This document shows, piece by piece, positions 10,301 through 42,696 of a DNA stretch of 64,000 bases (the first letter of the stretch is position 1; each line of letters begins with the position of its first letter). This DNA is from Mustelus asterias. Its lineage: Eukaryota. Position numbers and translations under genes: made by a program. Under the pieces are notes generated by a model. It was not told where the DNA came from. It searched no databases and saw nothing but the letters and a program-made list of their open reading frames with translations. The stretch spans positions 33,666,001 to 33,730,000 of the forward strand of contig NC_135804.1 in assembly GCF_964213995.1 (NCBI RefSeq), given 5' to 3'.

Positions 10301-13300
10301 GGATCATTTTTCCCAGTAAATCTTGTCAGAGTGAAGTTAATGGTTTTCTTAAAGCTAACTCGTGCCTGTACAAGTATCTGCTAGTAACTTAATGTTCTGA
10401 CTCTTAGGAGTGTAGAAAGGGCTTGTATAAACAGATAAACCTTGTACACATAGATAGACAGGGAATAGTCACCAGTATGATAACCAAGTGAGACTCTGTG
10501 GTGCTGATTAGGCCAGGCCACCAATGTAATGCGAAGATGGACAGAACAAACCTAAAAAGCACAACATCTGTTCTCCAGGTCAAGGTTAATATTCCTTGGT
10601 CTACAAATAAATATTTTTGAACTTAACCTGAGTGGATTTATTTCTGGAGTCTAAAGTGCAAAACTCCTCATCTGTATGAAGTCTTTGAAATTGACAAAGC
10701 ATAGGACATTAGACCAAGTTGTGGTAATTAAAAAAGTTATATATTCTATATTGACATCACTTGTTTACCGCAAACTACAGCAAAGTAAACAAATTACTTT
10801 AACCAGTGCAAAGCTGGCACAAAATGTACAATTAAAAAAATATCTATGTATTGTTTCATCATATTTTACAATTTCTATTGACAAGATATAATTTTTAACA
10901 ATTGACAAGCAAAGTTAGAGATCTTAATAGAGCAAGTGTGTCCCAGAGAAATGTTTGGACTTACCAGTGCTGGATTTTTTCCTTGCAGCTTGCGACCACC
11001 TGTTATTAAAATAGACAACTGCTCATGAAAAGCAATGTCAAGAATTCCAAGACTGTTCATACTGTAAACAAAAATACAGCAAACAACTGCAACTTAATTG
11101 ACCAAAAAATAAGAGGTACCTGAAATAAATCCACCTTGCTACGAGACTTCATTGTTTGATGACAAACACTATTACGTCTCAAGGTAATACAAATGGATTG
11201 TTTTTCTTGCTGTTTTTACAAACATTCACTATGAACTTTAGTATATCTTCTGAATTACTTTAAAAAATTTTTGCTTGCCTCAGGTCGAATATACAAATCG
11301 ACCCTTAATTGCATATATTTAGCATGCATGACCAAATCAAAAACCTATATTAAAAAATACTGTATGCTAGGAATCTGAAAAAAGAGATGAAAAAATACTC
11401 AGTAGATCAACCAGCATCTATGGAGAGAAACAAAATTGATGTTTCAGGCCGAGATGACCTTTGATCAAAGCTGAAGAAAGTTTGAAATGCAAGAGTTTTT
11501 AGGTCAAACTATAATTCTTTACTATACCCATTAACAATCTTTGGCACCTTGAAATCTTGTTATTTAATCTCCCCGCCCTCCACCCAATTACAGACCTTCA
11601 CTTTTGTTCATCCACCCGCTCTCCCCATTCATTGGTTTAAAACCTCTTACATTTCCAAGTTAACAAATTAAATGCCTGCCCATTTTCCTCAGGCACTGAA
11701 AATTACTTGAATCCAGAACCGATTTCTCCTTTCTCTTCATTACACATGAAAGCTATTAACACCACTTTAAGTACAATTTAAAGCAAACAATTTAGGTCAT
11801 TAGTTACAGTAAACAAACAACCTTTAGTGATAAACACAATCACATTAACACATACAATAATTTGTAATGCAATTTCCCCCTCCCCAATAAAAAATATTTC
11901 CATTTAATGTACTTTATAGACAACCCCAAGAGGAAAAGAATCATTGAAAAGGTGACTGCCGAAGCAAATGAATTCTTTATAAGTTGCAGCAAATCTGAAA
12001 AAGTAGAACAGAGAAGAAATATGCTGCTCCGTAAATAATGTGAAAACATACACCACATACGTGCTCTGTTAAAAAAAAGAACGACATACTGTCTTAGTCA
12101 GTCATTGGTCTGTTGAGCGTTAACTGACTCAGCTAAAACAATAGAGTTATAATTGGCCTCAACACCCTTGGAGGGGGAAAAGAAAAATTAAGCCCAGTTC
12201 TGATCACTATACAATAAAACCTATAAACATTACGCAATTAGAAATATCAGGTTCAACAATTTCTATGGCTGAATAGCACACTTCGCTGAATACATTTGTG
12301 TATGAAGATTGGCTACTTGGGCAAGGACCTGGTAATCATCTCCAACAAGCAATTTCTTGGAGATAGTAAGACAATGGAATCATAGAACCTTATGGTAGCA
12401 AGGCGGATAGCACTGCTGCCTCAGTGCCAGAGACCCGAGTTTGATGCCCAGCTTGGATGACTGTGCAGAGTCTGCACGAGTTTCCTCCAGGTGCTCAGGT
12501 TGCCTCCCACAGTCCGAAAGACATGCTGGTAAGGTGCATTGGCCATGCTAAATTCTCCCTCGGTGTACCCGAACAGGTGCTGGAATGTAACTACTAGGGG
12601 ATTTTCACTAACTTCATTGCAGTGTTAATGTAAGCCTACTTGTGACACACAAACTTTACAGTGCAGGTGGTGATTCGATCTATCGAGCCTGCACTGGCAA
12701 CAATCCCACCGAGGCCCTATTCCCATAACCCCACGTTTTTACGCTGCTAACCCACCTGACACCAAGGGTAATTTACCATGGCCAATCCACCTAACCTACA
12801 CATATTTGGACTGTGGGAGGAAACCCACACAGACACGGGCAGAATGTGCAAACACCACAGTCACCCAAGGTCAGAACTGAACCCAGGTCCCTGGCGCTGA
12901 GACAGCGGTGCTAGCCACTGTGCCACCATGCTGCCCTAAGAATGCCAGTAATTTCAATACTGATTATACTTGGAATTTCACAAAGATAAATATCCTCAAA
13001 GTTCTCCACTCCCCACTCTTAAAAGCTGTTTTAAAGAAACGTACTTCCATGCACCTCCCCAACCCCTCCCCTCAGTCCACTTTGCTAATATTCTCCCTTC
13101 TCTCTTGAAGAGTAGACCAGTGGCCTGCATTCACTTGGAGTATGTTGGCTACCACAGTGGAATGCAGAATCCCTCGCTTTCCCAATTAGCCATGCATAGG
13201 TCTCTACCCCAAATCAAATATGAAATAAAGACAACAATCCAGTAAAACAAGTATCAAAATTCAGTCATGGCATTTCACTTCAAAATGTACTTCTTCGATT

Positions 13301-19300: not shown

Positions 19301-20412
19301 CCCACCCGATTTCCATATCGGTCGATTTCCCTACAATCTTTTTTCACATTTGTTCTTTGTGTATTTGTAATTGTTTTGTATTAACGTATTTGTAATAAAC
19401 AAAAAGAAACCAAAAATCTATTTTAGCCTTCAACATGCTCATCAACTGTGCATGCCCTGGCGCCGAGGATACAGAATTCCAAACACTTGTAATTCACAGA
19501 GAGGAAGTTCCTCAAAACAATTTGAAACGATTGATTCATTAACCTGAGACCGTACTGCCCAGTTGTAGCCTCTTCAACACTAACAAATACCCTCAAGATC
19601 TTAAGTTTTAATGATACATAAACTTAGATCTAATATTTAAACTTCCTGAAGCAAATTGTGCAATACAACTTTTTGGATAGAGAGCGATTCGATCATTGCA
19701 ACATACAACTGTTTTGATTAGCCAGGAAAGTGTTTAGGTTATTTTTGGAAAATTAAGTAACATGTTGTTCATCTCACTTGATGGGGGAGGCCGAATTCGA
19801 GAAAGCCCTAGAAGGATTTAAGCAGCGTGACGTCAGATGTAAAGGTGCAACCGAATACAAGTGTTTATTTTCTGTTTCGATTGCATTTAATTCGAAACTC
19901 TCAGTTGCACCTTCACTGTTACGCACGCTGCTTTTAAAGTGCCCTGGTTGATTTTACTCTCTTGGAAAATGTGCTCGCCACGCTGCAGGGAGATTTCTAA
20001 CCGAGAGACCGAAGTCCCTCCATCCAGAGGCAGAACTAAGGGTCAAAGTCCAGCAGCAAAGTCCCCGCTGTATCTGGGGGTAGTCTGCTGCTGGCTGATC
20101 CGCCGGGAAGCAGGTTTTACACCGGGCTGGGGCTCGATGTTGAGGGGGGGACCCGATACATTTAAATCGTCGCTTTAAAGAGAAACCCTGGGCTCAGGGG
20201 GAGGGCAGGAGGCCGAGAAAAGCCCGATTCCAGCCGCGGCTCCGTCTCCTCGTTCTTCAAACTCTCCGCCTGATTTTAACACAACGGCCGCCGCCGCCGC
20301 CCGCCCGCTTATTCACGGCCTTTACCTTTCCGTGCTCTTCCCGGAGCCGTGAGAGCGGCTGCGAGCGGGCCGCTTTGCCGGCGGAGCAGGGCCGATGCTG
20401 CGAGTCTGCCAT
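4388..20412 (-). CDS. URI1: URI1 prefoldin-like chaperone (RPB5 interactor), 5' part. Coding exons 20412-20326, 10999-10965, 8731-8653, 4523-4388; gene continues beyond the left edge
   Basis: Four exons with GT-AG boundaries splice in frame to MADSQHRPCSAGKAARSQPLSRLREEHGK|VVASCKEKIQHW|VKVQNDYEALQSRLKTLPDKVSYDVM|VPFGSLAFMPGQLIHTNEVTVLLGDNWFAKCSAKQAIGLVEHRKT, the recognisable URI1 alpha-prefoldin domain. It lies downstream of CCNE1 on the same strand, as in human. Confidence 0.95.
4689..7766 (-). mobile_element. Internally deleted, decayed Gypsy-type LTR element with both LTRs (about 4689-4915 and 7545-7766)
   Basis: Diverged ~220-bp direct repeats, PBS-like TGACAACGAGG at 7543-7533, polypurine tract at 4928-4916, gag knuckle remnant TCHNCNKKGQLAKSCRG and integrase tail FLFQYRIMPQAMMGHSAAEMLMG. 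Confidence 0.8.
9500..10035 (-). mobile_element. Ancient DeuSINE (SacSINE1/AmnSINE1-like) remnant
   Basis: Deu-domain-like text (aaagtgcttcaca...gtcaatttgc...gatgttggttga); a similar remnant lies at about 39630-39770. Recognised from memory. Confidence 0.55.
12385..12933. mobile_element. Two tRNA SINEs tail-to-tail (+ about 12385-12655, - about 12655-12933)
   Basis: SINE head (agcactgctgcctca...cccgagtttga) on the plus strand and the reverse-complement head ending at about 12933. Confidence 0.75.
13350..13715 (-). mobile_element. SINE/LINE-tail repeat
   Basis: tRNA-like head in reverse (gggttagaacccgggtcc...taataccactaagcca); its tail resembles the LINE 3' end at about 63760-63810. Confidence 0.55.
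14960..16175 (+). mobile_element. Decayed CR1 LINE (endonuclease fragment joined to the RT 3' end)
   Basis: Fragments translate to LYRTLVRVHLEQYVQFWSPHYQKDVE; CR1 3' UTR gggcctgttcctgtact. Confidence 0.85.
16825..17168 (+). mobile_element. Young full-length tRNA SINE inserted in an older CR1 (about 16440-17800)
   Basis: A/B box head ggcggcacggtagcacagtggttagc...ggttcgattcc and (TTCTATGA)n tail; near-identical to 25475-25813. Confidence 0.9.
17900..18164 (+). mobile_element. 5'-truncated Tx1/L1-clade LINE 3' end with a perfect 16-bp target-site duplication
   Basis: TACCATATAATTTTGA at 17884-17899 and 18165-18180. The insert encodes RGYIRGQVSLEREHAVSTGAVDAFRDRWAPQGLGCIIDPDNHLLV*. Confidence 0.8.
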
Positions 20413-20975
20413 TTCCTTCAGAGCGGAGGCCCGAGCGTCAGTTTGACAAACACTCAGGAACTGGGAGTCCTAAAGAAATGTTTATGTGGGTGATAACTGC
20501 AGCCGCACAGCTCCTCACTCCTCGTCCGCATAGAGGGAGCAGGCCTTGTCATCCACAGCGTCGGCGCGGCAAACATTTCACACTCGCATTATCGGCCCAA
20601 ACAGCGCTTCAAGGCCGGCTTCTCCTTCCCCCCCAGCACCACCACCGGAGCCGCTCCGCTCTCAGCAACGCCCGCTGCCCCGCGCCATCTTCCTCAGCCC
20701 GGAGCGCAGCACACTGGGGCGGGGCCACGGAGGGAGCATGTGACACACTGGGGGCGGGGCTGCGGAGGGAGCACGTGACACAATAGGGCTGCGGCCGCCC
20801 AGGGAGCACGTGACACTGGGTCCATTGCCGTGTCGGGAGCGTGGGGGTGGGGGAGACCAGTTGGTTGGAGTACGTGATGCATTGGGAGCACGTGACAAAG
20901 GTGTCGGACCATGTCAGGAGCACGAGGCACTGGGTGGACGGGCGGGCGTGGCTATTGAGTGGAGCACGTGATGCC
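20092..20975 (-). promoter_or_regulatory. URI1 CpG-island promoter/first exon with YY1-type motif, GC boxes and multiple CACGTG E-boxes
   Basis: GC/CpG-rich. AAGATGGCG on the minus strand at about 20683-20691, GGGGCGGGGC boxes at about 20716 and 20751, and four perfect CACGTG plus variants between 20737 and 20972. Confidence 0.8.
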
Positions 20976-21049
20976 TGGACTAGCCGAGCTCTATAGAGTT
21001 ATTGACAGGACTGGGGAAGGCAGTTAACACCTGAATGCTTGCATTGGCG

Positions 21050-21522
21050 TAAACCATAGAAAACATTCTTTCTGGTTGTATCACAGCTTGGAATGGCTCC
21101 TGCTCTGCCCAAGACAGCAAAAGGTTGTGAATGTAGCCCAGTCCACCACGCAAACCAGCCTCCCATCCATTAACTCTGTCTACACTTCCCACTGCCTTGG
21201 CAAAGCAGCCAGTATAATTAAGGACTCCACAGACCCCAGACATTTTCTCTTCCACCTTCTTCCGTTGGGAAAAAGATACAAAAGTCTGAGGTCACATACC
21301 AACCGACTCAAGAACAGCTTCTTCCCAGCTGCTGTCAGACTTTTGAATAGACCTACCTTGCATTAAGTTGATCTTTCTCTACACCCTAGCTATGACTGTA
21401 ACACTACATTCTGCACTCTCGTTTCCTTCTCTATAAACAGGATGCTTTGTCTGTATAGCACACAAGGAACAATTCTTTTCACTGTATTCTAATACATGTG
21501 ACAATAATAAATCAAATCAAAC
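21050..21522 (+). mobile_element. Rex1/Babar-like LINE 3' end
   Basis: ORF ends RYKSLRSHTNRLKNSFFPAAVRLLN, followed by an AATAAATCAAATCAAA tail. Confidence 0.8.
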
Positions 21523-21584
21523 TGTTCACCAATTGTCACACCCCCGCCATCTCCCCACATACCTTGCATGTTCTTCCTTTTTTA

Positions 21585-22330
21585 CTTGATTTATTATTGT
21601 CACATGCATTGGGATACAGTGAAAAGTATTGTTGCTTGTGCACGATGCAGTCAAAACATACACTTCATAGAGTACCTGGGGAGAAGGAAAGAAGTGGGTG
21701 CAGAATATAGTGTTAAAGTCATAGCTAGGGTGTAGAAAAAGATCAACTTAATATATGATAGGTCCATTCAAAAGTCTGATGGCAGCAGGGAAGAAACTGT
21801 GCATGAGTCGGTTGGTACATAATCTCAGACTTTTGTATCTTTTTCCTGACAGAAGAAGGTGGAAGGAAGTAATTCCCTTCTGAATGCCTCAATAGAGTCT
21901 GCCTTCACCACTCTCTCAGGCAGTGCATTACACACCTTAACCACTTGCTGCATGGCAACGTTTTTCCTCATGGCATACTTCTTTGTCAATTACTTTGAAT
22001 CTGTAACCTCTCATTCTTGATCATTTCACAAGTGGGAAAAGCTTTTCCTTGTCTACTCTGTGCAGACCCCAGCCCCCTGTGACTTTGAATTCCTCTATCT
22101 AAGCCATTTCCTCCAAGGAAATCAGTCCCAACTTCTCCAATCCAACTTCGTAACTGAAGTTCCTCATCTCTGGAACCATTCTTGTCAATCTCTTCTGCAC
22201 TCTCTCCAATGCCTTCACATCTTTTTGAAAGTGCGGCATCCAGAACTGGATCCAATATTCCAGCTGAGGCTGAACTAGTGTCTCAAACAATTCAACATAA
22301 CCTTCTTGCGCTTGTAATCTCTGTCCTTAT
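21585..22330 (-). mobile_element. Inverted Rex1-like 3' end (about 21585-21868) followed by a CR1 fragment
   Basis: Reverse complement of 21250-21520; minus ORF TLVQPQLEYWIQFWMPHFQKDVKALERVQKR. Confidence 0.75.
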
Positions 22331-23544
22331 TAATATAAATATTTTTCTCCCCTGATATATTAGGTTAAAACTATTTTAAAGTGCCACTGTTTCACATTGC
22401 ACATTATTTTCCTTGTTATAACTTGACATCTGCTGCATAAGTTTGGCATAGTACCAGAGAAGCGTTGCACAAATGCAAGTTGAATGATTAAGTCTTGCGA
22501 GAGGACTGTCTGCTACACTGGAGTGTGACTTCAATAAGAACATAAGAAACAGGAGCAGGAGTAGGCCATCTAGCCCCTCAAGCCTGCTCCGCCATTCAAT
22601 AAGATCATGGCTGATCTGATAGTGGGTTCAGTTCCACTTACCCGCCCGTTCCCCATAACCCTTAATTCCCTTAATGGTTAAAAATCTATCTATCTGTGAC
22701 TTAAACACATTTAACGAGGTAGCCTCTACTGCTTCATTGGGCAGAGAATTCTAAAGATTCACTACCCTCTGGGAGAAGAAGTTCCTCCTCAACTCTGTTC
22801 TAAATTGACTCCCCCTAAGTGTGTTGAGCTGAGGGAAACTTAAATAGTTTCCTAAATCTCTAATATTGTTTGTATTTAACACTTAATTGCAAGTACTGCT
22901 TAAATTCTAAATTCCATCCTGGGGCCGAAGGAGCACTGGCAGCAGTTGAAATAGTTAATTAAGAAATAGGCTTGAACTGGTCTTTGCTGTACGTGGGCTC
23001 AGCTAGTCCCTTTGTTCAGAACTTATATATTCAGTTAGCGCGGCATGGTGGCACATTGGTTAGCACAGTTGCCTCACAGTGCCAGGAACCCGTGTTTGAT
23101 TCCTGGCTTGGGTCACTGTCTGTGCGGAGTCTGCACATTCTCCTACTCAGCAGGTTGGGCAGCATCTGTGGAGAGAAACAGAGTTATAAATTTTAGGGAA
23201 GATCGGGGATCATCATCAACCTGAAAGTTAACTGTTTCTCTCCACAAGTGCTACCTGATCTGCTTTTTTTTCAAGCTTTTCTATTTTTTTATTTCAGATT
23301 TCCAACATCTGCTGTATCTTGCTTTTGCAATAGCAATCAATTTGTTTTACACCCACCCAAGAAACCATGCTGCTGGCAATTAGTACTAATCATGATCTTG
23401 ACTAAGAAGTTGGGAATGTAGAATTGTTTTGTTGGGTGTTCTTGAAAGTATTGTTTTGAAACTTTGATGAAAAAAAATGTCAAATCTACTAAATTCAAAG
23501 AGCTGCTTCAAATAATAACAATGATATATACCCTAATCACCCTT

Positions 23545-23840
23545 ACAATGCAGAAAGAGGCCATTCGGCCAATCGAGTCTGCACCGACCACAATCCCACC
23601 CAGGCCCTATCCCAACAACCCTACTAACCCCCTGACATTAAGGGGCAATTGATCATGGCCAATCAACCTAACCCACACATCTTTGGAGTGTGGGAGGAAA
23701 CCGGAGCACCTGGAGGAAACACAGGCAGACACAGGGAGAATGTGCAAACTCCATACAGACAGTGACCCAAGCTGGGAATCAAACCTGGGTCCCTGGCGCT
23801 GTGAGGCAGCAGTGCTAACCACTGTGCCACTGTGCTGCCC
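23545..23840 (-). mobile_element. tRNA SINE
   Basis: Reverse complement of the HE1-like SINE. Confidence 0.85.
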
Positions 23841-24574
23841 TGATGTAATGATGTAACACTACATTTCAACATGCTAGATGTCAGCATGCTGCCTGCCTGA
23901 CCAAATCAGGAGGATGCATGTTAAGTTAATCACAAACTTATAAAAACTTTACATCAACAAGTCGCATTTTATAGTGCCTTTAATGTAGCTAAATGTCCTA
24001 GGGCACTTAACCAGCATGATATCAAGATGTTTGACACTTAGCTACGGGAAGAGACATCAGGACGTTACGAAAGATTTAGGTTTTAAGGAACAAATTCAAG
24101 GAGGAAAGAGAGAGAGACAGAAAAATTTAGAGAGGGAATTCCAGAGCTTAGACAGCTCAAAACACATAGAACATAGAACGTTACAGCGCAGTACAGGCCC
24201 TTCGGCCCTCGATGGTGCGCCGACCTGTGAAACCAATCTAAAGCCCATCTAACCTACACTATTCCAATATCATCCATATGTTTATCCAATAACCATTTAA
24301 ATGCCCTTAATGTTGGCTATCAGCCAACACAGCCATCAGTGGTAGAGTAAATGAAATCGCGAATGCTCAACAGGCTAGAATTGGAGAAGCACAACTATCT
24401 TGAAGACTTGAAGAGCTGGAGGGATTTTAAATAAGAATGGGGATTGAGGTGTTATCAGACCTGGAGCCTGTAGAGGTCCACAAATACAGGGGTGTTAGTT
24501 GAACAAGACTTGGTCTCAATTATGATACAGATAGCAGAGTCTTGGAATGAGAAGTTTATGGAAAATGAAAAAGG

Positions 24575-24862
24575 GGGTGGCACAGTGGTTAGCATTGCTG
24601 TCTCACAGCGCCAGGGACCTGAGTTCAATTCCAGCCTGGGATGACCGTCTGCGTGGGTTTCCTTTGGGTGCTCCGGTTTCCTCCCACAGTCCAAGATGTG
24701 CAGGTTAGGTGGATTGGCCATGGTAAATTGCTCCTTAGTGTCAGGGGGATTAACAGGGTAAATACATGGGGTTAAGGGGATAGGGCCTGGGAGGATTGTT
24801 GTTGGTGCAGGCTCAATGGGCAGAATGGCCTCCTTCTGCATTACAGGAATTCAATGATTCTA
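24575..24862 (+). mobile_element. tRNA SINE
   Basis: ggtggcacagtggttagc head and CR1-type tail. Confidence 0.8.
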
Positions 24863-25474
24863 AAAATGGAATATTACTGAAGAGCACTGAAATAGTCGCA
24901 TTGAGAGGCAACAAAGTCATCGACAAGTGTTTCAGCATCAGATGAACTGAGGCAGGGTTAGAATCAGGTGATGTTACAGAGGTGCAAGTAGATCGTCATG
25001 GTAATGGATATGTGTGATCAAAACTCACCTTGGGGTCTAAAACAACACTATTTTATGAACAGTTTTGCACAGATTCAGATAGTCGCCAGTGATGGAAATA
25101 GTAGCCGGGGACAGAAAAGGCCATACACTGTTTCAAACTTTGTCCCCTCACAGATTTCGTCTAGATGAAGAGTTCCTGCAGTTGAGTTGCAGCCTGGTTC
25201 TAGGCCAGGCCATCATTAAGTGCTACTTTTTGGCAGCTGCTAGGAGGAACAGTAGAGCAATGTGCTGAGTCACTCCATACAAATTTTCATTGACCTCTGT
25301 TCAGCATTTCTTTTGGTGGCGCTGACATTGTTTCATTCTGTGGCACTGTGCTGTGTTTACCCATAACTAAAATAAAGGTGTAACATCCATCTACAATGCT
25401 GGTGATCTTATGATTCTCCATTTCTAAAATAGCTTTAGTCAGGGAACCTAGGCAGCATTTGTGTACCTCCTGAT

Positions 25475-25813
25475 GGCGGCACGGTAGCACAGTGGTTAGC
25501 ACTGCTGCTTCACAGCTCCAGGGTCCTGGGTTCGATTCCCGGCTTGGGTCACTGTCTGTGTGGAGTTTGCACATTCTCCTCGTGTCTGCGTGGGTTTCCT
25601 CCGGGTGCTCCGGTTTCCTCCCACAGTCCAAAGATGTGCGGGTTAGGTTGATTGGCCAGGTTAAAAATTGCCCCTTAGAGTCCTGGGATGTGTAGGTTAG
25701 AGGGATTAGCGGGTAAATATGTGGGGGTAGGGCCTGGATGGGATTGTGGTCGGTGCAGACTCGATGGGCCGAATGGCCTCCTTCTGCACTGTAGGGTTTC
25801 TATGATTTCTATG
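25475..25813 (+). mobile_element. Young full-length tRNA SINE
   Basis: Near-identical to 16825-17168. Confidence 0.9.
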
Positions 25814-26428
25814 AATGCACCTGAAATCCATGTTTCAGAGCATTGTCACAAATCTGTGTGTCCTAGCACTTAAAAGAACACATTTTGCAATCAATTCCAG
25901 TTTAGAAAGTGCACATTCTATTGGCTCTATAGTAGAAGAATAAATTGCATAAAAATCCCAAGTTGTAAGTACAACCTCATTCCTTGACTCCACTTTCTCT
26001 GAGTGCTGGACAGACCTATTGTGTCCTCATCACCATTACAATCCAAATGTGAACCTGATCCAACTTTTATTATGTCAAGCTGCTAATCACAGTTTTTAAA
26101 AAAGAAACACTCTTGAAGTAAGTCATGGGAATATTAAATATCTGCATTAAGCATTTATTGCTGGATATGCAGTCTATGTTTAATTGCTAGGAACAGTATT
26201 TACTCAGGCAAAAGGTTATCCATAGGGCCTGACTTGTATCGGATTATTGTGATTAAGAGGATATGTTGTAAAGATATCAACCTACGCAGTCCAAAGTACT
26301 ATCAATCCCCTTTTGTAAATTTACTGGGTCATTTTCCGAAGGTTGACTTGAGGTTGTTTGCCCATGCTATACCACACTATATGTTTGGGAGGGTGAAGAA
26401 GAGTCTATTAAATTAAAATATACTGACT

Positions 26429-26775
26429 GGAGAATGTTATCAAAATTATGTTATTACAGTACATTCGTTCACTCTATAGAAATAACAATTAAAATATTCA
26501 AAAGTACTGATGGGCTGAACGAAGTTTTCATTTCCATATTTTAATGTGTTGATCTGTACTTCTGGAGGGATAGTTTCATAACCTGGAAAAATAGGATAGT
26601 ATGTTTGTTGATTTGATTGTGAACAGGGACGAAGAGGCACAAAAACAAACTCTGGGGTAATAGCAGACATGATTCAGCAGAGTAAAAAACAACTTTCAAA
26701 CCAAAACAGAAACTCAAAGCTTCTGTAACTCAAATCTATTTTTAAACTACCACTTTACTACAATAAAATATTCCA
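26429..26775 (+). repeat. Source copy of a ~345-bp local direct duplication (second copy 28703-29048)
   Basis: Direct alignment by eye shows roughly 8-10 differences. Confidence 0.92.
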
Positions 26776-26829
26776 GTGGAAAGCTGACGATCTGATATTC
26801 CACAATAAAGAATAAGTTTAATTAATTTG

Positions 26830-27135
26830 GGAAGCACAGTGGTTAGCACTGCTGCCTCACAGCGCCAAGGACCCAGGTTCGATTGTGAGCTTGAGTGACT
26901 TTCAGTATGGAGTTTGCACGTTCTCTGTGTGGGTTTCCTCTGGATGCTCCAATTTCCTCCTACAATCCAAAGTTATGCAGGTTAGATGGATTGGGCATGG
27001 TAACTGTGTGGGGTTATGGGGATAGGGTGGAGGAGAGGGCCTGAGTGGGGTGCTATTTTAAAGAGTTGATGCAGACTCGATGGGGCTGGATAGCCTCTTT
27101 CTGCATAGTACGGATCTTCTACAGATTCTATGGTT
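26830..27135 (+). mobile_element. tRNA SINE
   Basis: agcacagtggttagcactgctgcctcacagcgcc head and CR1-type tail. Confidence 0.8.
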
Positions 27136-28696
27136 CCAATTAATTTATTGCATTTTGCATAGATCTTTTGTTTTAAATGCGTTAAATAATCATTAAATCC
27201 AAGCTATTACCATTTCATAACTTAACACGTGGTCAATCTCTTGCTCAGTCACTTGTCTTCTTTATGTGATCTGTACAGAAATTGTAACTGAGTAATACAT
27301 TTTCCTTTGCAGAAAGTAAAAACATTTTGACCAAAGCTGAGATATCTTATCTATTACCTACTGCAAGTACGTATTTCATACCCTGTAGTTCTTGTGATTG
27401 TGTTTATGTCTGCCCCTTTTTGTTGCCCACATTATCATTTCTGCATGTCAGTCTGGTGCCACCGAAGTGTATGCACCTGCAATTGATGTAAATTTATTCC
27501 CTACATATTCAACGAATATTGAACATGTACCAAGTAACGCACATTGCAAAATTAATCTCTGCTGTCATTTTAAAATTCATTAAAGCAAACCATACTCCCA
27601 TTTTCATTGTGCACGGAACACAGAAAATCTGAGAATAAAATTAAAAATATATAACATTGACATTTATAGTTTTCAGAGGGAATTTGAATTTATCCATCAC
27701 TTGGGGTGAGGAAAGCAAATTTAAAAACTGCTTTGTATGCCATGGCCCAATTTTGTAATTGTGCTTTGCTAAAAATACAGAAAATCTCAAGAGCTATCTA
27801 GTCCTCTCTACCTGTTGTAGCATCCTTTAACTGTTCAAAATGTTACTATACCCTGTCATGCGTGTCTTGGAGAGTTTGCTTTTTTTATTGCGATTATTAC
27901 ACCAAAATTCTCATTTGGCATTTTTGATGATATCCACATCCTTAATAAACACCTTGACACCTACATGCTTTCATGTCCTATACTCCTGTGTCCTACTTCC
28001 TCTGTTCCTCCTTTTGTCATATTTTAATTTCCTTGATCATTCTAATTTTGTGTACTTGCAATGCTATTGTACGGGCATAAGGATTAGTAGAAGGAAAAAC
28101 TCTGCCAAGTTTTACATATTCTTGATTGCATCCATTTCCTTAACATCATCTGTAGCACACAGCTTAAAACCATTTCACTTAAGTGAATTAAAATCATTCA
28201 ACTTGCATTTATGCAGTCTTTCTCTGGTTATACATCAAACTTAGCAGATATTTACAGGTGAATATGTGCAGTCATCACAAGGACAATGATGTGCAATTTG
28301 AAACATTGGCACTTATAATAGTTGTAAATCAGTACATGAGAAACAAATGTTTATATTGCACCACCATTCTCCATGTGCTGGTGGTGTTGCTTTCAGAAGG
28401 GAGACACATTCCCCCAGGAGCAGATGCTGGTGCCTGCACATTGCCTCTAACTCTCTGTGGGTGCACATTCTCTTTCTGACTGGGTGTGCTTGCCCTCACA
28501 CTCTGGTGGTATGGAGGCTCATTTTTGTGTGTGGGACTGTGCACACTCAGTCGGTGTGCATGCTCTCTCACTTTCTCTAGCTGGGTGTTCATTCTCTCGT
28601 TATGAAGATAGATTGGTGAAGTTGGGACTGTTTTCCTTGGAGAAAAGAAGGCCGAGAGAAGATGTGATAGAGCTATTCAAAATCATGAGGGGTCCA

Positions 28697-30693
28697 TTTT
28701 GGGGAGAATGTTATCAAAATTATGTTATCACAGTACATTTGTTCACTCTATAGAAATAACAATTAAAATATTCAAAAGTACTGATGGGCTGAACGAAGTT
28801 TTCATTTCCATATTGTAATGTGTTAATCTGTACTTCTGGAGGGATAGTTTCATAACCTGGAAAAATAGGATAGTATGTTTGTTGATTTGATTGTGAACAG
28901 GGACGAAGAGGCACAAAAACAACTCTGGGGTAATAGCAGACATGATTCAGCAGAGTAAAAAACAACTTTCAAACCAAAACAGAAACTCAAAGCTTCTGTA
29001 ACTCAAATCTATTTTTAAACGACCACTTTACTACAATCAAATAATCCAAGTTTGCCGACAACACGAAGGTTGGTGGGGTTGTGGATAGTCTGGAGGGATG
29101 TCAGAAGTTACAGAGGGACATAGATAGGATGCAAGGCTGGGCGGAGAAGTGGCAGATGGACTTCAACCCAGATAAATGCGTAGTGGTCCATTTTGGCAGG
29201 TCAAATGGGATGAAGGAGTACAATATAAAGGGAAAGACTCTTAGTACTGTAGAGGATCAGAAGGACCTTGGGATCCGGGTCCATAGGACTCTAAAATCGG
29301 CCCCGCAGGTGGAGGAGGTGGTTAAGAAGGCGTATGGTGTGCTGGCCTTTATCAATCGAGGGATTGAGTTTAGGAGTCCGGGGATAATGATGCAGCCATA
29401 TAAGACCCTCGTCAGACTCCACTTGGAGTACTGTGCTCAGTTCTGGTCGCCTCATTACAGGATGTGGAAAAGATTGAAAGGGTGCAGAGGAGATTTACAA
29501 GGTGTTGCCTGGATTGAGTGGCATGCCTTATGAGGATAGGCTGAGGGAGCTCGGTCTTCTCTCCTTGGAGAGACGTAGGATGAGAGGAGACCTAATAGAG
29601 GTATACAAGATGTTGAGAGGCATAGATCGGGTGACAAAATTCATAATGCTAAAGTGCAAAGGGACTTGGGAGTCCTAGTCCAGGATTCTCTAAAGGTAAA
29701 CTTGCAGGTTGAGTCCGTAATTAAGAAAGCAAATGTAATGTTGTCATTTATCTCAAGAGGCTTGGAATACAAAAGCAGGGATGTACTTCTGAGGCTTTAT
29801 AAAGCACTGGTTAGGCCCCATTTGGAGTACTGTGAGCAATTTTGGGCCCCACACCTCAGGAAGGACATACTGGCACTGGAGCGGGTCCAGCGGAGATTCA
29901 CACGGATGATCCCAGGAATGGTAGGCCTGACATACGATGAACGTCTGAGGATCGTGGGATTATATTCATTGGAGTTTAGGAGGTTGAGGGGAGATCTGAT
30001 AGAAACTTACAAGATAATGAACGGCTTAGATAGGATGGACGTAGGGAAGTTGTTTCCATTAACAGGGGAGACTAGGACGCGGGGGCACAGCCTTAGAATA
30101 AAAGGGAGTCACTTTAGAACAGAGATGAGGAGAAATTTCTTCAGCCAGAGAGTGGTGGGTCTGTGGAATTCATTGCCACAGAGGGCTGTGGAGGCCGAGA
30201 CGTTGAGCGTCTTCAAGACAGAAATTGATAAATTCTTGATTTCTCGAGGAATTAAGGGCTATGGGGAGAGAGCGGGTAAATGGAGTTGAAATCAACCATG
30301 ATTGAATGGTGGAGTGGACTCGATGGGCCGAATGGCCTTACTTCCGCTCCTATGTCTTATGGTCTTATGGTCTTATGGGTGGACTCTCAGAGGCTTTTTC
30401 CCAGGGTGGAAATGGCTGCTACGAGAGGACACAGGTTTAAGGTGCTGGGGGCTAGGTACAGGGGAAATGTTAGGGGGAAGTTTTTCACACAGAGGGTGGT
30501 GGGCGAGTGGAATCGGCTGCCATCAGTGGTGGTGGAGGCAAACTCAATAGGGTCTTTTAAGAGACTCCTGGATGAGTACATGGGACTTAATAGGATGGAG
30601 GGTTATAAGTAGGCCTAAAAGGTAGGGATATGTTTGGCACAACTTGTGGGGCCGGAGGGCCTGTTTTGTGCTGTAGTTTTTCTATGTTTCTAT
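28697..30693 (+). mobile_element. Composite insertion: captured local DNA + 5'-truncated CR1 (about 29048-30693), itself interrupted by a second CR1
   Basis: Flanked by GTCCA at 28692-28696 and 30694-30698 inside an older CR1 fragment; RT ORF 29081-29533; (TTCTATG)-type tail. Confidence 0.85.
29634..30376 (+). mobile_element. Young nested CR1 3' fragment with an intact 211-aa RT C-terminal ORF
   Basis: ORF 29654-30289 ([20 protein letters not shown]...FFSQRVVGLWNSLP), (TCTTATGG)3 tail, and GGGTG on both sides (29629-29633, 30377-30381). Confidence 0.9.
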
Positions 30694-30899
30694 GTCCAGA
30701 CAAAGTACTGAGAAAGAAACTGCGCCTCCTCATAATAGGATTGAGAACGTTGGGCGGGGGGGGGGGGGGGGGGGGGGTGGGGGGGAGGGTGCTCTATTTC
30801 TATCGTGTAATAATTATCACATTCATCTAACACACATAAGGTCTCCAGTTCAAAACCTGACAGAAACATTATCCAAAATGTAATCTAACATTATCCAAA

Positions 30900-31203
30900 T
30901 GGGGCAGCACAGTGACACAATAGTTGGCATTGCTGCCTCACAGCGCCAGGAATCCGGTTCAACTCCTGCCTTGGGTCATTGTCAGTGTGGAGTCGGCATG
31001 TTCTCCCCGTGTCTGCAGGGGTTTCCTTCAGGTGCTCCAGTTTCCGCCCACAGTCCGAAAGGCGTGCTGGTTAGGTGCATTGGCCAGGCTAAATTCTCCC
31101 TCAGTCAACCCGAAGAGGTGCCGGAGTGTGACGACCAGGGGATTTTCACAATAACTTCATTGCAGTGTTAATGTAAGCCTAGTTGTGACACTAAATAAAT
31201 AAA
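30900..31203 (+). mobile_element. tRNA SINE, second subtype (…gtgttaatgtaagcct…aataaa tail)
   Basis: Same subtype as 36705-37010 and 55030-55315. Confidence 0.8.
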
Positions 31204-31256
31204 TGGAGCGAGAAGGCACAGATTTCATGTAATTGGCAAAAGAAGCAAGGACGATA

Positions 31257-31324
31257 GAATATGCAGTAAGTGGTTGACAGAATATGCAGTAAGTGGTTGA
31301 CAGAATATGCAGTAAGTGGTTGAC
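31257..31324 (+). repeat. 23-bp tandem repeat x3 (GAATATGCAGTAAGTGGTTGACA)
   Basis: Three consecutive copies visible within a CR1 tail remnant. Confidence 0.9.
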
Positions 31325-31599
31325 GTGTGAAACACACTTCCCCAGACTGTGGTGGAGGCAGGTTCAATTGAGACAGCCAGAAGGGAATTATAGTGTTATC
31401 TGAAAGAGGAAGAATGCGCGGGGTTATTGGGGGGCAAGGTGGGGGGAATGACACTGGGTGAATTGCGCATTGGGAGAACCAGTGGACGCACCATGGGCCA
31501 AAGGGCCTCCTGCTGTGCTGTAACATTCTGTGCGGCTCTGGGGTCTGCCAGTTGCCCTCCTTGCTCCCCAGTGTCACCTGCTCCAACCACAGGGCCCCA

Positions 31600-32453
31600 T
31601 AACGTCGGCTGCTCTACGGCGGCGCCCACCACCAGCACCACCTTGCCACTCCCAGGGTCACGTGCTGGCGCACGCGTCCCGCCCTATCACGTGCTCCACC
31701 CACTACGCCAGGCACGGAGATACGTGCTCCCTCCGGGGCCCCGCCCCCAACGTGATCCACAGTCCCGCCCCATGTATGTCACGTGCTCCCTCCCGTGGCC
31801 CCGCCCCAGTGTGTCACGTGCTCCCTCCCGTGGCCCCGCCCCAGTGTGTCACGTGCTGCGCTCCGGGCTGAGGAAGATGGCGCGGGGCTCCGGTGGTGGT
31901 GCTGGGGGGGAAGGAGAAGCCGGCCTTGAAGCGCTGTTTGGGCCGATAATGCGAGTGTGAAATGTTTGCCGCGCCGACGCTGTGGATGACAAGGCCTGCT
32001 CCCTCTATGCGGACGAGGAGTGAGGAGCTGTGCGGCTGCAGTTATCACCCACATAAACATTTCTTTAGGACTCCCAGTTCCTGAGTGTTTGTCAAACTGA
32101 CGCTCGGGCCTCCGCTCTGAAGGAAATGGCAGACTCGCAGCATCGGCCCTGCTCCGCCGGCAAAGCGGCCCGCTCGCAGCCGCTCTCACGGCTCCGGGAA
32201 GAGCACGGAAAGGTAAAGGCCGTGAATAAGCGGGCGGGCGGCGGCGGCGGCCGTTGTGTTAAAATCAGGCGGAGAGTTTGAAGAATGAGGAGACGGAGCC
32301 GCGGCCTCGGCTGGAATCGGGCTTTTCTCGGCCTCCTGCCCTCCCCCTGAGCCCAGCGTTTCTCTTTAAAGCGACGATTTAAATGTATCGGGTCCCCCCC
32401 CTCAACATCGACCCCCAGCCCGGTGTAAAACCTGCTTCCCGGCGCATCAGCCA
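31600..32453 (+). other. Inverted duplicate of the URI1 promoter, 5' leader, coding exon 1 (32126-32212) and start of intron 1
   Basis: The reverse complement of about 20092-20780 matches about 31778-32453. It has the same 29-codon exon and GTAAAG donor; ORF-track entries 20349(+) and 32189(-) are identical for the first ~100 aa. Confidence 0.93.
31778..31857 (+). repeat. 35-bp minisatellite (about 2.3 copies); each unit has an E-box GTCACGTG and a GC box CCCCGCCCC
   Basis: Unit gtcacgtgctccctcccgtggccccgccccagtgt; CACGTG at 31780, 31815 and 31850. Confidence 0.9.
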
Positions 32454-32699
32454 CACCAACAAAAGTTGGACACCTGCAAAGAGGCCTGCGTTCCTGAGAA
32501 AGAGAGAGTGAGTGGAAACGGGAAATGATCAAGAAAAAACATCAATTTGTGAGTTTGAGGTGGCACTACTGCCTCTTAGCGCCCGGGACCTGGGTTCAAA
32601 TACTGGCTTGGGTCACTCTGCGGAGTCTGCACCTGTGTCTGCGTGGGTTTCCTCTGGGTGTTCCGTGTTAAATTCTCCCTCAGTGTACTTGAATGAATG

Positions 32700-33850
32700 A
32701 TAATGATTTGGATGAGAATTTAGGAGGCATGGTTAGTAAGTTTGCAAATGACACCAAGATTGATGGCATTTTTAAAAAGTTTTATTAGTCACTAGTAAGG
32801 CTGCAATGAAGTTACTGTGAAATTCACTTGGTTCTCACAGTCCCCCGGCACCTGTTTGGGTCAATGTAACTAACCAGCGCATCTTTCAGAATGTGGGAGG
32901 CACCCGGAGGAAACCCACGCAGAACGTACAAATTCCACACATAGTGACCCAAGCCGGGAATCGAACCCGGGTCCCTGGTACTGTGAAGCAATGGAGCTAA
33001 CCGCTGTGAAGAAAGTTATCGAGGATTGCAGCGGGTTCTTGATCAATTGGGCCAGTGAGATGACGGATGGCAAACGGAATTTAATTTAGATAAATGCGAA
33101 ATGATGCATTTTGGAGATCAAATCAGGGCTGCACTTAGTTAATGGTAGGGTGTTGGGGAAAGTTATAGAACAAAGAGATCTAGGGGTACAGGTTCATAGT
33201 TCTTTGAAAATGGAGTCACAGGTGGACAGAGTGGTGAAGAAGGCATTCAGCATGCTTGGCTTCATTGGTCAGAACATTGACTACAGGAGTTGAGACCTCT
33301 TGTTGAAGTTGTACAAAAGATTGATAAGGCCACACTTGGAGTACTGTGCACAGTTCTGGTCACCCTATTATAGAAAGGATATTGTTAAACTAGAAAGAGT
33401 GCAGAAAAGATTTACCGGGATGCTGCCGGGACTTGGTTTGAGTTGTAAGGAGAGGCTGGATAGACTGAGACTTTTTTCTCTGGAGCGTAGGAGGCTGAGG
33501 AGTGATCTTAGAGATCTATAAAATCAGCTAGATACTGAATATCTTTTCCCAAAGGTAGGGGAGTCTAAAACTAGAGGGCATCGGTTTAAGGGGAGAGACA
33601 CAAAAGGGTCCAGAGGGGCAATTTTTTGACAGAGGATAGTGAGTGTCTGGAACAAGCTGCTAGAGGTAGTAGTAGAGATGGGTACAATTAATTTTGTCTT
33701 TATAAAAATCGTTTAAACAGTTACATGGGTAAGATGGCTATAGAGGCACATGGGCCAAACGCGGGCAATTGGGACTAGCTTAGTGTTTTTTTTAAAAAAG
33801 TGGCGACATGGACAAGTTGGGCTGAAGGGCTTGTTTTCATGCTGTAAACT
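32700..33850 (+). mobile_element. CR1 LINE RT fragment interrupted by a minus-strand SINE (about 32780-33005)
   Basis: ORFs EQRDLGVQVHSSLK and [18 protein letters not shown]. Confidence 0.85.
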
Positions 33851-34019
33851 GTGAACAGGCACCGGCTGGAGTGTGGCGACGAGGGGATTTTCACAGTAAC
33901 TTCATTAACTTGTTAATGTAAGCCTAATTGTGACATTAATAAATAAACATTTTTTTAAACTTTGTACGGCATTCCCAGTCAGTCAGTTTAGAGTCAGAAT
34001 TCGAACAATCCTCTTGGAA

Positions 34020-34320
34020 TCATAAAATAGAATCATAGAATCCCTACGGTGTAGGAGGAGGCCATTCAGCTCATCAAGTCTGCACCAACCACTATCCCAC
34101 TAGGGCCTTATCCCTGTAATCCCATGTATTTACCCTGATAATCCTCCTAACACTGACAGGGAATTTCACATGGCAAATCAACCTAACTGCACATCTTTGA
34201 ATTGTAGGAGGAAACACAAGCAAACAATGGGGGAATGTGCAAACTCCACACAGACTCCAGGGCCAGAATTGAACCTGGGTCCCTAGCGCTGTGAGGCAGC
34301 ATTGCTCGCTACTGTGCCGT
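34020..34320 (-). mobile_element. tRNA SINE
   Basis: Reverse-complement HE1-like SINE with an agaatcatagaatc tail. Confidence 0.75.
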
Positions 34321-35286
34321 CGGGAACCAAGCTTAAAGATCCAAAGTCTGCACAGACCTTTTACAACATTAATTATACCATGTGACATGTGTATAAGAGG
34401 GAGAGAATGAGTTTCAACACAAGGCAACGGGGACAACATTTTGTTGTCACAGAGGATCAGGTAGGATGTTGTAATCAGCAGCAAGGTGATGGTAGTCACT
34501 TGCTAACCTTAAAGAAAGCTGTCTACAAAAATCTAGAGTTCTTTGTGGCATGGGCTTCCCCTTTCCTGATGCCAGTTTGGGGATAGAACCTGACATGCCC
34601 CAAGCAATCAGTTCCACTGAAGTAATCTCCCAAGCAGCAAATATAGTTAAAGGCAAAATGCTGCAGATGTTGGAATCTGAAACAAAAGCAAATACTGGAG
34701 AAACTTAGCAGGTCTGACAGTATCTAATTCGAGCTGATGAAGGGTCATCCAGACTCAAAACATTGGCTCCATTCTTTCTCATATGCAGGAAGTATAAATG
34801 ACTGAATCGCTTCACTTTTAACCTTTAAATTTTATAGTCACAATGTTAGAATGCAGCCATGGGACTTAGCTGGCCACTGAAATATTGTAAACTTGAAAAA
34901 ACCTTTAGGATGTAAGTTGCCTTTTCAGAAGGGGGAAATTTGACATTCAAAGTGAAATTATGCTAGGGGTTGTGAATTGTTTAACAGTAATTATGAATGT
35001 GCCACACCATATTTTAAAAAAAACCCAGTTTCACCTCGTTTTTCAAGGCTTTTAACTGGGAGACAAAGTTTTCATCAATTAAATGATTTCTAATTGCATT
35101 CTAAGGGGCACTTCTAAAGCAATATCGAATCTCCAACAGCAAACTATGCAGGTGAAGTTCAGAGGAGTAATGTCTGAATATTGACGCCTTTAGTGTTATT
35201 GTTACTACAAAATTGAGGCTGGTGAAACCCCAATCTGAATGAAGCTATTTATTACATTGTCACTGTTTGGTACCCAATGCCTCCCA

Positions 35287-35583
35287 TTGTAGTTTCTCGG
35301 CTTTTTGGCTACGAATCAAGTGTAGTATCGACAATGCTGTACTTGGTTGAAGTCATTAGGTTATATCTTAGCTTCATTTGAAGCAATTTTTAAAAGCGGC
35401 ATCTCGGCCTTTTGGCTAAGATGCAAATGAGATAAACCTTGGAGGAGGTGCAATGCCTCAGCTTGGATCATGTAGATCAAGCCCAAGACAGGAGGGGAGA
35501 GCCCTGTCTTGTCAGCTTGGATCAGGAATGTCTCACTCGTTGAGACTCTGAATTGGACTTGATTGGATTGAATTTTTTTTTTA
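35287..35583 (+). pseudogene. Element carrying two U2 snRNA 5' fragments (35294-35329 and 35399-35422), ending in a T-run
   Basis: ttctcggctttttggctacgaatcaagtgtagtatc and tctcggccttttggctaagat match U2 nt ~6-40 and ~7-27 (ATCGCTTCTCGGCCTTTTGGCTAAGATCAAGTGTAGTATC). The rest of U2 is absent. Confidence 0.75.
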
Positions 35584-36704
35584 AATGATATTACCTCAGC
35601 GTAAAATGATGTTTTAACTCAAATGCTTGTGTTACGGAAAATGTTGTTAAATATTCCTCTTTGTGTGTTCCAAAGGAGCGAGACCGATAAATTGTTATAG
35701 TGCTGACTAGCCATTCCTATATGATTGGTAATAATAGCAGTCTTCCATTTGCACTTGACTAGGTTTCGGAGGAAGCAGTTCTTACGATCCCAGGTAATGT
35801 TACTTACTGGACACTCGGGTCGCAGGATGGATCTCTGGCTTGATAGATCGCAACTCTTGTTTTAAAGATGTAGGTGAACGGAGTCACAGGATTGCTGATT
35901 AACTTTTAATAAAATATTTTCTTGTTTAAAGGTTTTAACTACAATACACTACTCCACCCCACAAAAATTACAAAATAGATTTTATCCTCGTGTTCTTAGT
36001 AAATAAAGGTAAGGTAAAGTCGCCATAGTCCCAGTTGACTATAGGTTGCTCTCCCCATTGAGTGGGGAGCTAACTGGTAGCGATTTAACTTGAGGATCAC
36101 CACACCGCAGGCGAGGGGCAAAGTTGAGAAGGCAGGCTTTCATGAATAACCTCAGCCAATACGGGAATTGAACACATGTTGTTAGCGTCATTCTGAACTG
36201 ACTTCCTGACGAATACTGTAGTCCTAACTCCCTGGTTTCTTGGACAACTTTTCTTCCTTTGGGATGTCTGCTTTCTGCAGCTCCTTGGTCCGGTCCAGCT
36301 TAAAATTAATTCAAAAGTTTTTTCTATGCAAGGGTGGCCCCTGGTTGCTAAGCAATAGCCTGTTTTTTCCCTTAAGCCCTTTAGAATGCAGACATAGTTC
36401 AAAGGCACCCTTGTTTAACATTAGGCTAATTAGGTTTTTAACCCTTTCATACAAAAACAAAAAAATAAACTTAAAGTTATACTCTATATAATTCCCACAA
36501 ATATAAATTATTTAAAGCTACTTTTATTTCCCCTCGGTCCACATCCATGTCACAATTTTGTTCCTAACTTGCCTTGGGAAGTATTCCATACTTATATTTT
36601 TTACAGAACCTGATTAGCCATGAGTAAGACCTTCAATAATTATTGGAAAATAATAATTTTAAATGAGTCGTCACAAAGATGGGTTGTATTATCAGCTGGT
36701 CAAT

Positions 36705-42339: not shown

Positions 42340-42345
42340 TTTATT
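42340..42345 (-). terminator. Probable CCNE1 polyadenylation signal AATAAA
   Basis: The mRNA-sense context is TTTAAATAAAAATACTG, about 350 nt after the stop codon. Confidence 0.6.
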
Positions 42346-42426
42346 TAAAATAAACAGGTTTAAATAAACAATTCCATAAATCAATACTTTGACCTTACTG
42401 TTCACTTTTCCAAGAGTCACCCTCCT

Positions 42427-42434
42427 TAGCAGCA
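42427..42434 (-). promoter_or_regulatory. miR-15/16 8mer seed match (UGCUGCUA) in the CCNE1 3' UTR
   Basis: Plus strand reads TAGCAGCA, between the stop codon (42697) and the polyA signal (42345). CCNE1 is an established miR-15/16 target. Confidence 0.75.
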
Positions 42435-42696
42435 TTTAGGATTACTTGGAAAGCACCCCTTATTTGGTTGGAGTTCTTGGCAAAAGTCCACCAGTTTTAA
42501 AAGGGTCAATATTAAAAACAAGGTTATACAGGAGAAAGTTCTGACATCCAGAATTAAGTGACACTGGCACTTTTGGAATGCAATTACAATAGTCTGTATT
42601 CAAGGGTAGGTCATGTGAATCAAATCCAACTTCTGTTCATTTAAGACAGTCACATTCAGACTTTGAGAGAAATTCACCCATAATCCCATCCAAGTT

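Follow-up and report, generated by a model that had tools for sequence, protein, structure and literature searches.

An old inverted duplicate of the URI1 promoter and first coding exon in Mustelus asterias, probably homogenised by gene conversion and starting a separate spliced RNA

The 5' end of the URI1 gene is present twice, as an inverted pair, in a stretch of 64,000 nucleotides from the shark Mustelus asterias (NCBI RefSeq assembly GCF_964213995.1, contig NC_135804.1, positions 33,666,001 to 33,730,000 of the forward strand), which is called the window here and whose first letter is position 1. The left copy (20092..20789, minus strand) consists of proximal E-box/GC-box units, the 5' leader, URI1 exon 1 and about 230 bp of intron 1, and the right copy (31767..32453, plus strand) of the promoter, the leader, exon 1 and the start of the intron. 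Between them lies a spacer of 10,977 bp (20790..31766), about half of which matches other places in the window (pieces of short interspersed elements, SINEs, and of CR1 elements). Coding exon 1 of URI1 (20326..20412, minus strand, 29 codons) was identified by comparison with 49 candidates, five of which, all cartilaginous-fish URI1 proteins, were hit at the N-terminus with 73–87% identity; searched alone, it gives no Pfam match. It is followed on the minus strand by exon 2 (10965..10999), exon 3 (8653..8731) and exon 4 (4392..4523, borders approximate, with a Prefoldin domain), and the later exons lie on the same strand beyond the window. As had been noticed in an earlier examination of the letters only (the sequence-only reading), exons 2–4 lie past the left copy only, and the right copy points to the 3' end of another gene, which we take to be CCNE1, a name that comes from that reading and from familiar motifs. 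The last coding part of this gene with its AATAAA (approximately 42345..42840, minus strand; stop at 42697, AATAAA at 42345) is convergent with the right copy at a distance of about 10 kb, and a Cyclin_N domain was found on another of its exons.

A self-BLAST of the window aligns 20092–20789 with 32453–31767 in inverted orientation over 715 columns with 92.4% identity, close to the limits first proposed (about 20092–20780 and 31778–32453). In both copies the ATG (20412 and 32126), the 87-nt exon (MADSQ...EEHGK) and the GTAAAG donor (20325 and 32213) are intact, and the core of leader and exon, described beforehand as essentially identical over some 400 bp, is exactly so: the longest exact match is 400 bp (20253..20652, minus strand, equal to 31886..32285, plus strand). 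Only 4 substitutions separate the copies over about 594 aligned bases; these lie on the intron side together with the 6-bp indel already noted and an additional one of 1 bp. The leader indel, given earlier as 26 bp, is a segment of 27 bp (20653..20679, minus strand) that is present in the left copy alone and contains the stop of an 8-codon upstream open reading frame. The right copy was also said to keep its CpGs unmutated, and the observed/expected CpG ratio is indeed 0.88 in each copy vs 0.32 in the spacer. When 481 bp of the core were searched against the genome, three matches were returned, namely both copies and an unrelated match of 56 bp at 82%. The homology is sharply bounded at 20092/32453: past the repeat no homology was found on the intron side (best E value 0.19) and only repeats and single E-box units matched on the promoter side, while inspection of the intron-side junction by eye revealed no evident target-site duplication or breakpoint motif. 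An Rfam search over 18000–43000 gave nothing in either copy and a single match overall, a U2 fragment at 35289.

To follow the pair beyond the assembly, 4 of 24 listed sequencing runs, all as short-read contigs, were compared with the right copy only (31500–32560); runs holding a small share of the sampled words were not used. X1 is a DNA run of the same organism and possibly of the assembly sample, X4 carries another sample code, X7 comes from organism D, a related species, and X12 from the more distant organism E, with one run per species. Displayed for this comparison were 40 of the 53 substitution rows, 12 of the 46 indel rows, 21 of the 27 loose ends and 26 of the 50 pieces, and contig depth is not copy number. 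In X1 the right upstream flank (31500–31806) and the right downstream junction (32415–32560) are present with 0 differences each, and both left flanks occur as loose ends, so that all four junctions are present. The core is represented in X1 by a single contig of 618 nt in which left and right letters alternate as a mosaic, which is what would be expected if an assembler collapses small differences. The left-type 27-bp leader segment was seen in X1 and X4 and as a variant in X7. The deletion of these 27 bp in the right leader is crossed by no displayed contig and is known from the assembly alone, and the indel may be specific to this species.

Organism D possesses both copies, which follows from X7, where the right upstream flank is represented by record 17 (11 differences over about 231 aligned bases, or about 5%), the right downstream junction by record 24 and the left intron junction by record 23. 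The pair thus predates the split of this species from D. Seven changes between D and this genome are common to both copies, three of them assigned to this lineage, three to that of D and one unpolarised. In D, a 4-base insertion behind 32413 occurs in two contigs that account for the full depth (13.2 of 13.2), and neither copy here has it. The two contigs displayed for it are records 23 and 24, one for each flank, which makes this insertion the firmest single item for homogenisation. Six more D differences stand at two-copy depth, and the copies here are identical at all six positions. At 31866, 31979 and 32087 organism E agrees with this genome, so that both copies changed in D, and at 32106, 32144 and 32237 E agrees with D, so that both copies changed in this lineage. 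Record 19 has a depth of 13.5, where about 10 would be expected if its three differences were confined to a single copy and 13.3–13.4 is the two-copy depth. With seven such changes between the species and 0 differences in 400 bp between the copies here, paralogs are closer to each other than to their orthologs (in one relative and by contig data), which is the pattern of concerted evolution.

The identity within the pair is patchy, with a tract-like block. Clustering of the differences has a P value of about 0.026 for substitutions only and of 0.003 with indels. The absence of any difference in 400 bp has a probability of about 3e-9 at the flank divergence of about 5% and of about 0.007–0.02 at the core's own 1–1.25%. 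The sequence-only reading had deduced gene conversion from this gradient; conversion has found support, with the comparison between species and not only this gradient as its basis. At 32357 and 32445 both D contigs have the letter of the left copy, and at 32412 D has that of the right copy, suggesting that the intron-side differences between the copies here are young and that the gradient most likely marks the latest conversion tract and not an old edge. Over exon 1 (32107–32237) the D contigs show 6 and 1 differences and represent two copies or alleles, which are presently not homogenised there. According to per-run tallies, the 13 undisplayed substitution rows all belong to X7, with G>A or C>T changes in 11 of them. 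It would thus seem that conversion acts in episodes and that one of the copies in D may be undergoing decay.

Organism E shows 22 differences and 41 gaps over 31722–32336 and yields an unbranched contig of 1330 nt in which a left-type upstream array, the core and the URI1 intron follow one another. As a near-identical second copy would break such an unbranched contig, E appears to have one copy, or a second one that is much diverged; this call rests on the unbranched contig and not on the uncovered right flanks in X12. Since E joins the left-type upstream region to the URI1 intron, URI1 here retains its ancestral upstream region. Judged from these contigs, a duplication after the split from E and the loss of a copy in E would both be compatible with the data.

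Upstream of the cores the two copies part. The window has 13 CACGTG sites, nine of which fall within the two upstream arrays (4 left, 5 right). The arrays had been called clearly related but strongly rearranged, and this holds for the CACGTG motif and for the proximal 35-bp E-box/GC-box units, which can be aligned between the copies though rearranged. It does not hold for the distal parts, the left-specific array (20790..20975, minus strand) and the right-specific array (31560..31766, plus strand). Their collinearity was rejected, with an alignment score of 94.5 vs 76 +/- 9 for shuffles and with 70 of 120 unit permutations matching or beating the true unit order. The left array is CpG-rich and of the ancestral upstream type, as it matches the X12 loose end before 31722, where 30 visible upstream letters of E align with it. 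The right array is also found in D, with about 95% identity, and contains 17 CpG (observed/expected 0.79) vs at most 9 CpG in 205 spacer windows, which fits a long-term lack of germline methylation. Its CpG retention is not explainable by conversion. That it has ceased to align with the left array, although the upstream letters of E still do so, hints at an older origin or at a different source of the right array.

The left copy is the working URI1 promoter, with exon 1 spliced to exon 2 across 9.3 kb in X4 at a depth of 282. X4 is not on record as RNA and was judged to be so from this junction. Its leader contig starts with 13 left-type letters, and the only leader contig extended in the 5' direction is of the left type, in agreement with the assembled arrangement. 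The right copy is transcribed as well: an intron-side contig (32185–32444, depth 139) carries right-copy letters throughout with 0 differences, and a contig of 1690 nt (record 15, depth 85) covers 32415–32509 and resumes at 35765. This jump defines a GT..AG intron (32508..35762, plus strand; splice 32507 to 35763), the donor of which is 55 bp outside the duplicated segment. The start of the second exon of this transcript is 35763..35794 (plus strand), which enters an old repeat at 35778. Within the window the 30 loose letters of record 15 have a single occurrence, and the repeat beneath the exon has other copies in the genome that are 71–79% alike. A contig entering the left intron has a depth of 57. 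Contig depth says little about the level of expression, and we conclude from it only that the right transcript clearly exceeds trace amounts in X4. Hence a partial 5' duplicate is transcribed and spliced into unique downstream DNA (X4 records 13 and 15), and the promoter for another transcript, suggested earlier as an alternative to conversion, has found support too, so that both readings are correct; the copy is not newly born, however, being also present in D. If the URI1 donor at 32213 is read through, the frame from the URI1 ATG ends after 51 codons (32126..32281, plus strand), 226 nt before the new junction, and the longest frame is one of 90 codons in a transcript model with an unspliced second exon. 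A stop 226 nt ahead of a junction marks an RNA for nonsense-mediated decay by the usual rule, and the right-copy RNA is for this reason probably a separate one that is non-coding or degraded by this pathway. If the second exon is not spliced, the contig would reach no further than about 37359, which leaves some 5 kb to the AATAAA of CCNE1 at 42345, and antisense overlap with CCNE1 was accordingly not supported.

Our preferred explanation, to which we assign a probability of roughly 80%, is that of an old inverted duplicate, homogenised by conversion, whose right copy starts a separate spliced RNA. About 0.7 kb comprising the URI1 promoter, leader, exon 1 and intron start was inversely duplicated 11 kb upstream before the split from D, as the flanks in D show. 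Episodic non-crossover gene conversion, suggested by the pattern of shared changes, would then re-homogenise the two CpG islands, with new mutations reaching both copies within a lineage and the unique flanks diverging, and the 400-bp exact core would be the latest tract. The right copy is, in X4, transcribed through the URI1 donor and spliced from the new donor 55 bp past the repeat to the exon at 35763, giving an RNA that may be non-coding or lost to nonsense-mediated decay. The spare exon 1 would look intact because it is converted from the constrained URI1 copy. The length of the core supports conversion, as it is within the range of published lengths for efficient recombination, which are more than 200 bp in mouse and 337–456 bp in human (PMC3966225).

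Several points weigh against this explanation. The data from the other species are short-read contigs from one run per species, in which depth does not count copies, and the displayed output lacks 13 of the 53 substitution rows, 34 of the 46 indel rows and 24 of the 50 pieces. Among the changes common to both copies, only the insertion behind 32413 is found on separate flank-linked contigs; that at 32144 rests on two contigs without a flank link, the other five rest on depth, and the one at 32237 is a triplet-repeat change for which recurrence is possible. The non-collinear distal arrays are a poor fit to simple copying after the split from E. Transcription of the right copy is seen in one run, X4, where no right-type leader contig occurs among those compared and the start site is not placed (the uncovered 31500–31885 in X4 was not counted as evidence). 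In addition, the new donor is GC in D (32509 T>C). GC donors can work, yet the spliced form may be young and limited to this lineage.

Among the other explanations, an artefact of assembly or polishing, which had been named as a possible refutation, has next to no chance of being correct. Polishing can generate identical cores, X1 is possibly the sample behind the assembly and the 27-bp deletion is on no displayed contig, but the four junctions in X1, the right-type intron letters in X4 and the two copies in D all speak for a real second copy, as does the fact that 0.87 of the sampled words are present in X1, as against 0.43 predicted for the left copy by itself. A single recent duplication in this species, with uneven identity by chance, would account for the mere four substitutions, and the substitution clustering is weak (P about 0.026); it is nevertheless largely refuted and very improbable, given that the two copies and the same right flanks occur in D, at about 5% upstream divergence, that 400 bp without a difference are hardly expected at either of the divergence rates considered above, and that changes common to both copies within each lineage need exchange. 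It is also quite improbable that the pair is the scar of one old inversion with staggered breaks, which would have left inverted duplicates at its breakpoints and URI1 with a new upstream region. Such duplicates are a described outcome of inversion, and the right array keeps more of the proximal units that align to E (from 31722), but the apparently single-copy E joins the left-type distal upstream region to the URI1 intron as URI1 does here, a comparison of the right outer flank with the spacer gave no homology beyond repeats, and the later homogenisation would be left unexplained.

The idea that the pair is a toggle, in which crossover between the cores flips the 11-kb spacer and places URI1 under the left or the right array depending on the chromosome, is compatible with the preferred explanation, but we consider it unlikely. 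The geometry is as the sequence-only reading described it, with both arrays inside the spacer and the coding sequence untouched: a core crossover would invert 10,977 bp and lengthen the first upstream open reading frame of the leader from 8 to 27 codons. Conversion implies that the copies pair, and the 400-bp identical stretch is long enough for homologous recombination (PMC3966225). In yeast, homogenised inverted repeats of 4 kb re-invert a 24-kb segment (PMC9731477), and in human 11 of 16 analysed inversions at inverted repeats were recurrent, with a 782-bp stretch at 99.9% as a likely breakpoint (PMC3961182). On the other hand, the flipped form was not seen in the assembly, in the E contig or in the X4 leader, whereas the X1 and X7 contigs cannot phase the 400-bp identical core. 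The two phased observations, assembly and E contig, agree in joining the left upstream region to the URI1 intron, the X4 leader contig is of the left type, and the three core matches in the assembly include no alternative arrangement. The repeat is only 0.7 kb long, and short homology favours non-crossover repair. A programmed invertible promoter switch of the Hin/Fim type was rejected, as these bacterial switches have a dedicated recombinase and short recognition sites, while the repeat here is a 0.7-kb host promoter and the spacer frames of at least 90 amino acids, inspected by eye and with no family scan, look like pieces of long interspersed elements or SINEs and none like a recombinase. 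A maintained twin-promoter device, in which conversion would hold the 5' end of a non-coding RNA identical to the URI1 leader and first exon, so that both share regulation or compete for common factors, and in which an occasional crossover would flip the spacer and give URI1 the other E-box array and leader, appears unlikely; if true, it would mean a heritable promoter-swap polymorphism at a housekeeping gene, common to shark species and invisible to analyses of coding sequence or single-nucleotide polymorphisms. Returning to the converted inverted duplicate, flipping is possible in principle and nothing observed requires it. The case is a small, well-supported converted inverted duplicate with a duplicated-promoter RNA, and a switch is not demonstrated.

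In its workings the pair resembles SIGLEC11/SIGLEC16 of primates and the yeast IRL/IRR repeats, as a source of a new RNA BRCA1/NBR2, and in layout the CCDC200 duplicate. The SIGLEC11 and SIGLEC16 genes are head-to-head about 9 kb apart, and their upstream regions and first exons were converted in each lineage with patchy identity (PMC5701461). There, however, two complete genes of the same family take part and the tract measures about 2–3 kb, whereas the shark partner has exon 1 only, the tract is 0.4–0.7 kb and what the second copy produces is another RNA. The BRCA1/NBR2 and BRCA1P1/NBR1 arrangement likewise yields a long non-coding RNA from a duplicated promoter with 5' exons, but it is tandem, bidirectional and about 4.4 kb in size, and conversion is unmentioned in the accessible part of the source (bioRxiv 10.1101/2025.11.08.687349). 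The same source describes CCDC200 Janus/sunaJ, where an inverted duplicate with the first coding exon and adjacent intron brackets a segment; this duplication is of 4 kb, the enclosed 34 kb are inverted with respect to bonobo and the duplicate is reported absent from bonobo and baboon, while the shark pair is common to two species and no inversion was seen. In the flip/flop system of Saccharomyces the inverted repeats IRL and IRR are also closer within than between species, but these repeats measure 4 kb and include whole genes, and the two orientations are both on record; neither point applies to the shark (PMC9731477). Finally, the human FLNA-EMD and AQP12A/B inversions show that exchange within a repeat can swap first exons with the coding sequence unchanged, in that case with both orientations genotyped and repeats of up to 40 kb (PMC3961182). 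What sets the shark locus apart is that it is small and that a housekeeping gene present in a single copy is paired with a partner that is not a gene. Our literature search found no paper treating URI1, CCNE1 and shark together and none combining duplicated promoter, gene conversion, long noncoding RNA, first exon and pseudogene.

The locus is thus a compact natural case of concerted evolution of a sub-kilobase promoter and first coding exon, whose partner is not a second protein gene. It illustrates that the exon of a spare copy can keep an intact appearance in the absence of coding selection, that a promoter copy can start a new spliced RNA and that changes arising in a spare copy can be pasted into the leader and N-terminus of URI1. 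As the whole repeat fits one 1-kb amplicon or long read, inversion of short converted repeats is directly testable here. Template switching in the 400-bp identical core during the polymerase chain reaction mimics a flip, and short-read mapping will mix the two copies at this locus.

Some further observations concern the surroundings of the pair. With about 280 nt from the AAGATGGCG motif, the URI1 leader (20412–20690) is a long one; it contains five upstream ATGs, and translational control is possible. A stretch of 56 bp in it (20535–20590; 31948–32003) matches a site on contig C23 at 82%, one frame of which resembles a decayed reading frame, and an old repeat may be the source of part of the leader. 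Within the spacer, 26429–26775 and 28703–29048 form a 347-bp direct duplicate of 97.7% identity, which is a second local duplication at the locus; the latter part ends at the start of a CR1-like piece. Nested CR1-like reverse-transcriptase pieces occupy 29045–30620, the outer parts of which are about 87% identical to 48551–49513. At 35285–35585 (plus strand) lies an interspersed repeat of about 300 bp with two U2 snRNA 5' fragments (Rfam U2 32–36 bits, below the gathering score). A genome search yielded 1823 candidates for this repeat, most of the 40 that were scored being 87–94% identical, and three more copies align end to end with unrelated flanks, so that it looks like a U2-headed SINE. 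Such SINEs were reported from crocodilians only (PMC4494074). On contig C15 (69191572–69192112), three URI1-like matches with internal stops, corresponding to residues 181–317 and 470–515, lie within about 540 bp and probably represent a processed URI1 pseudogene with an internal deletion.

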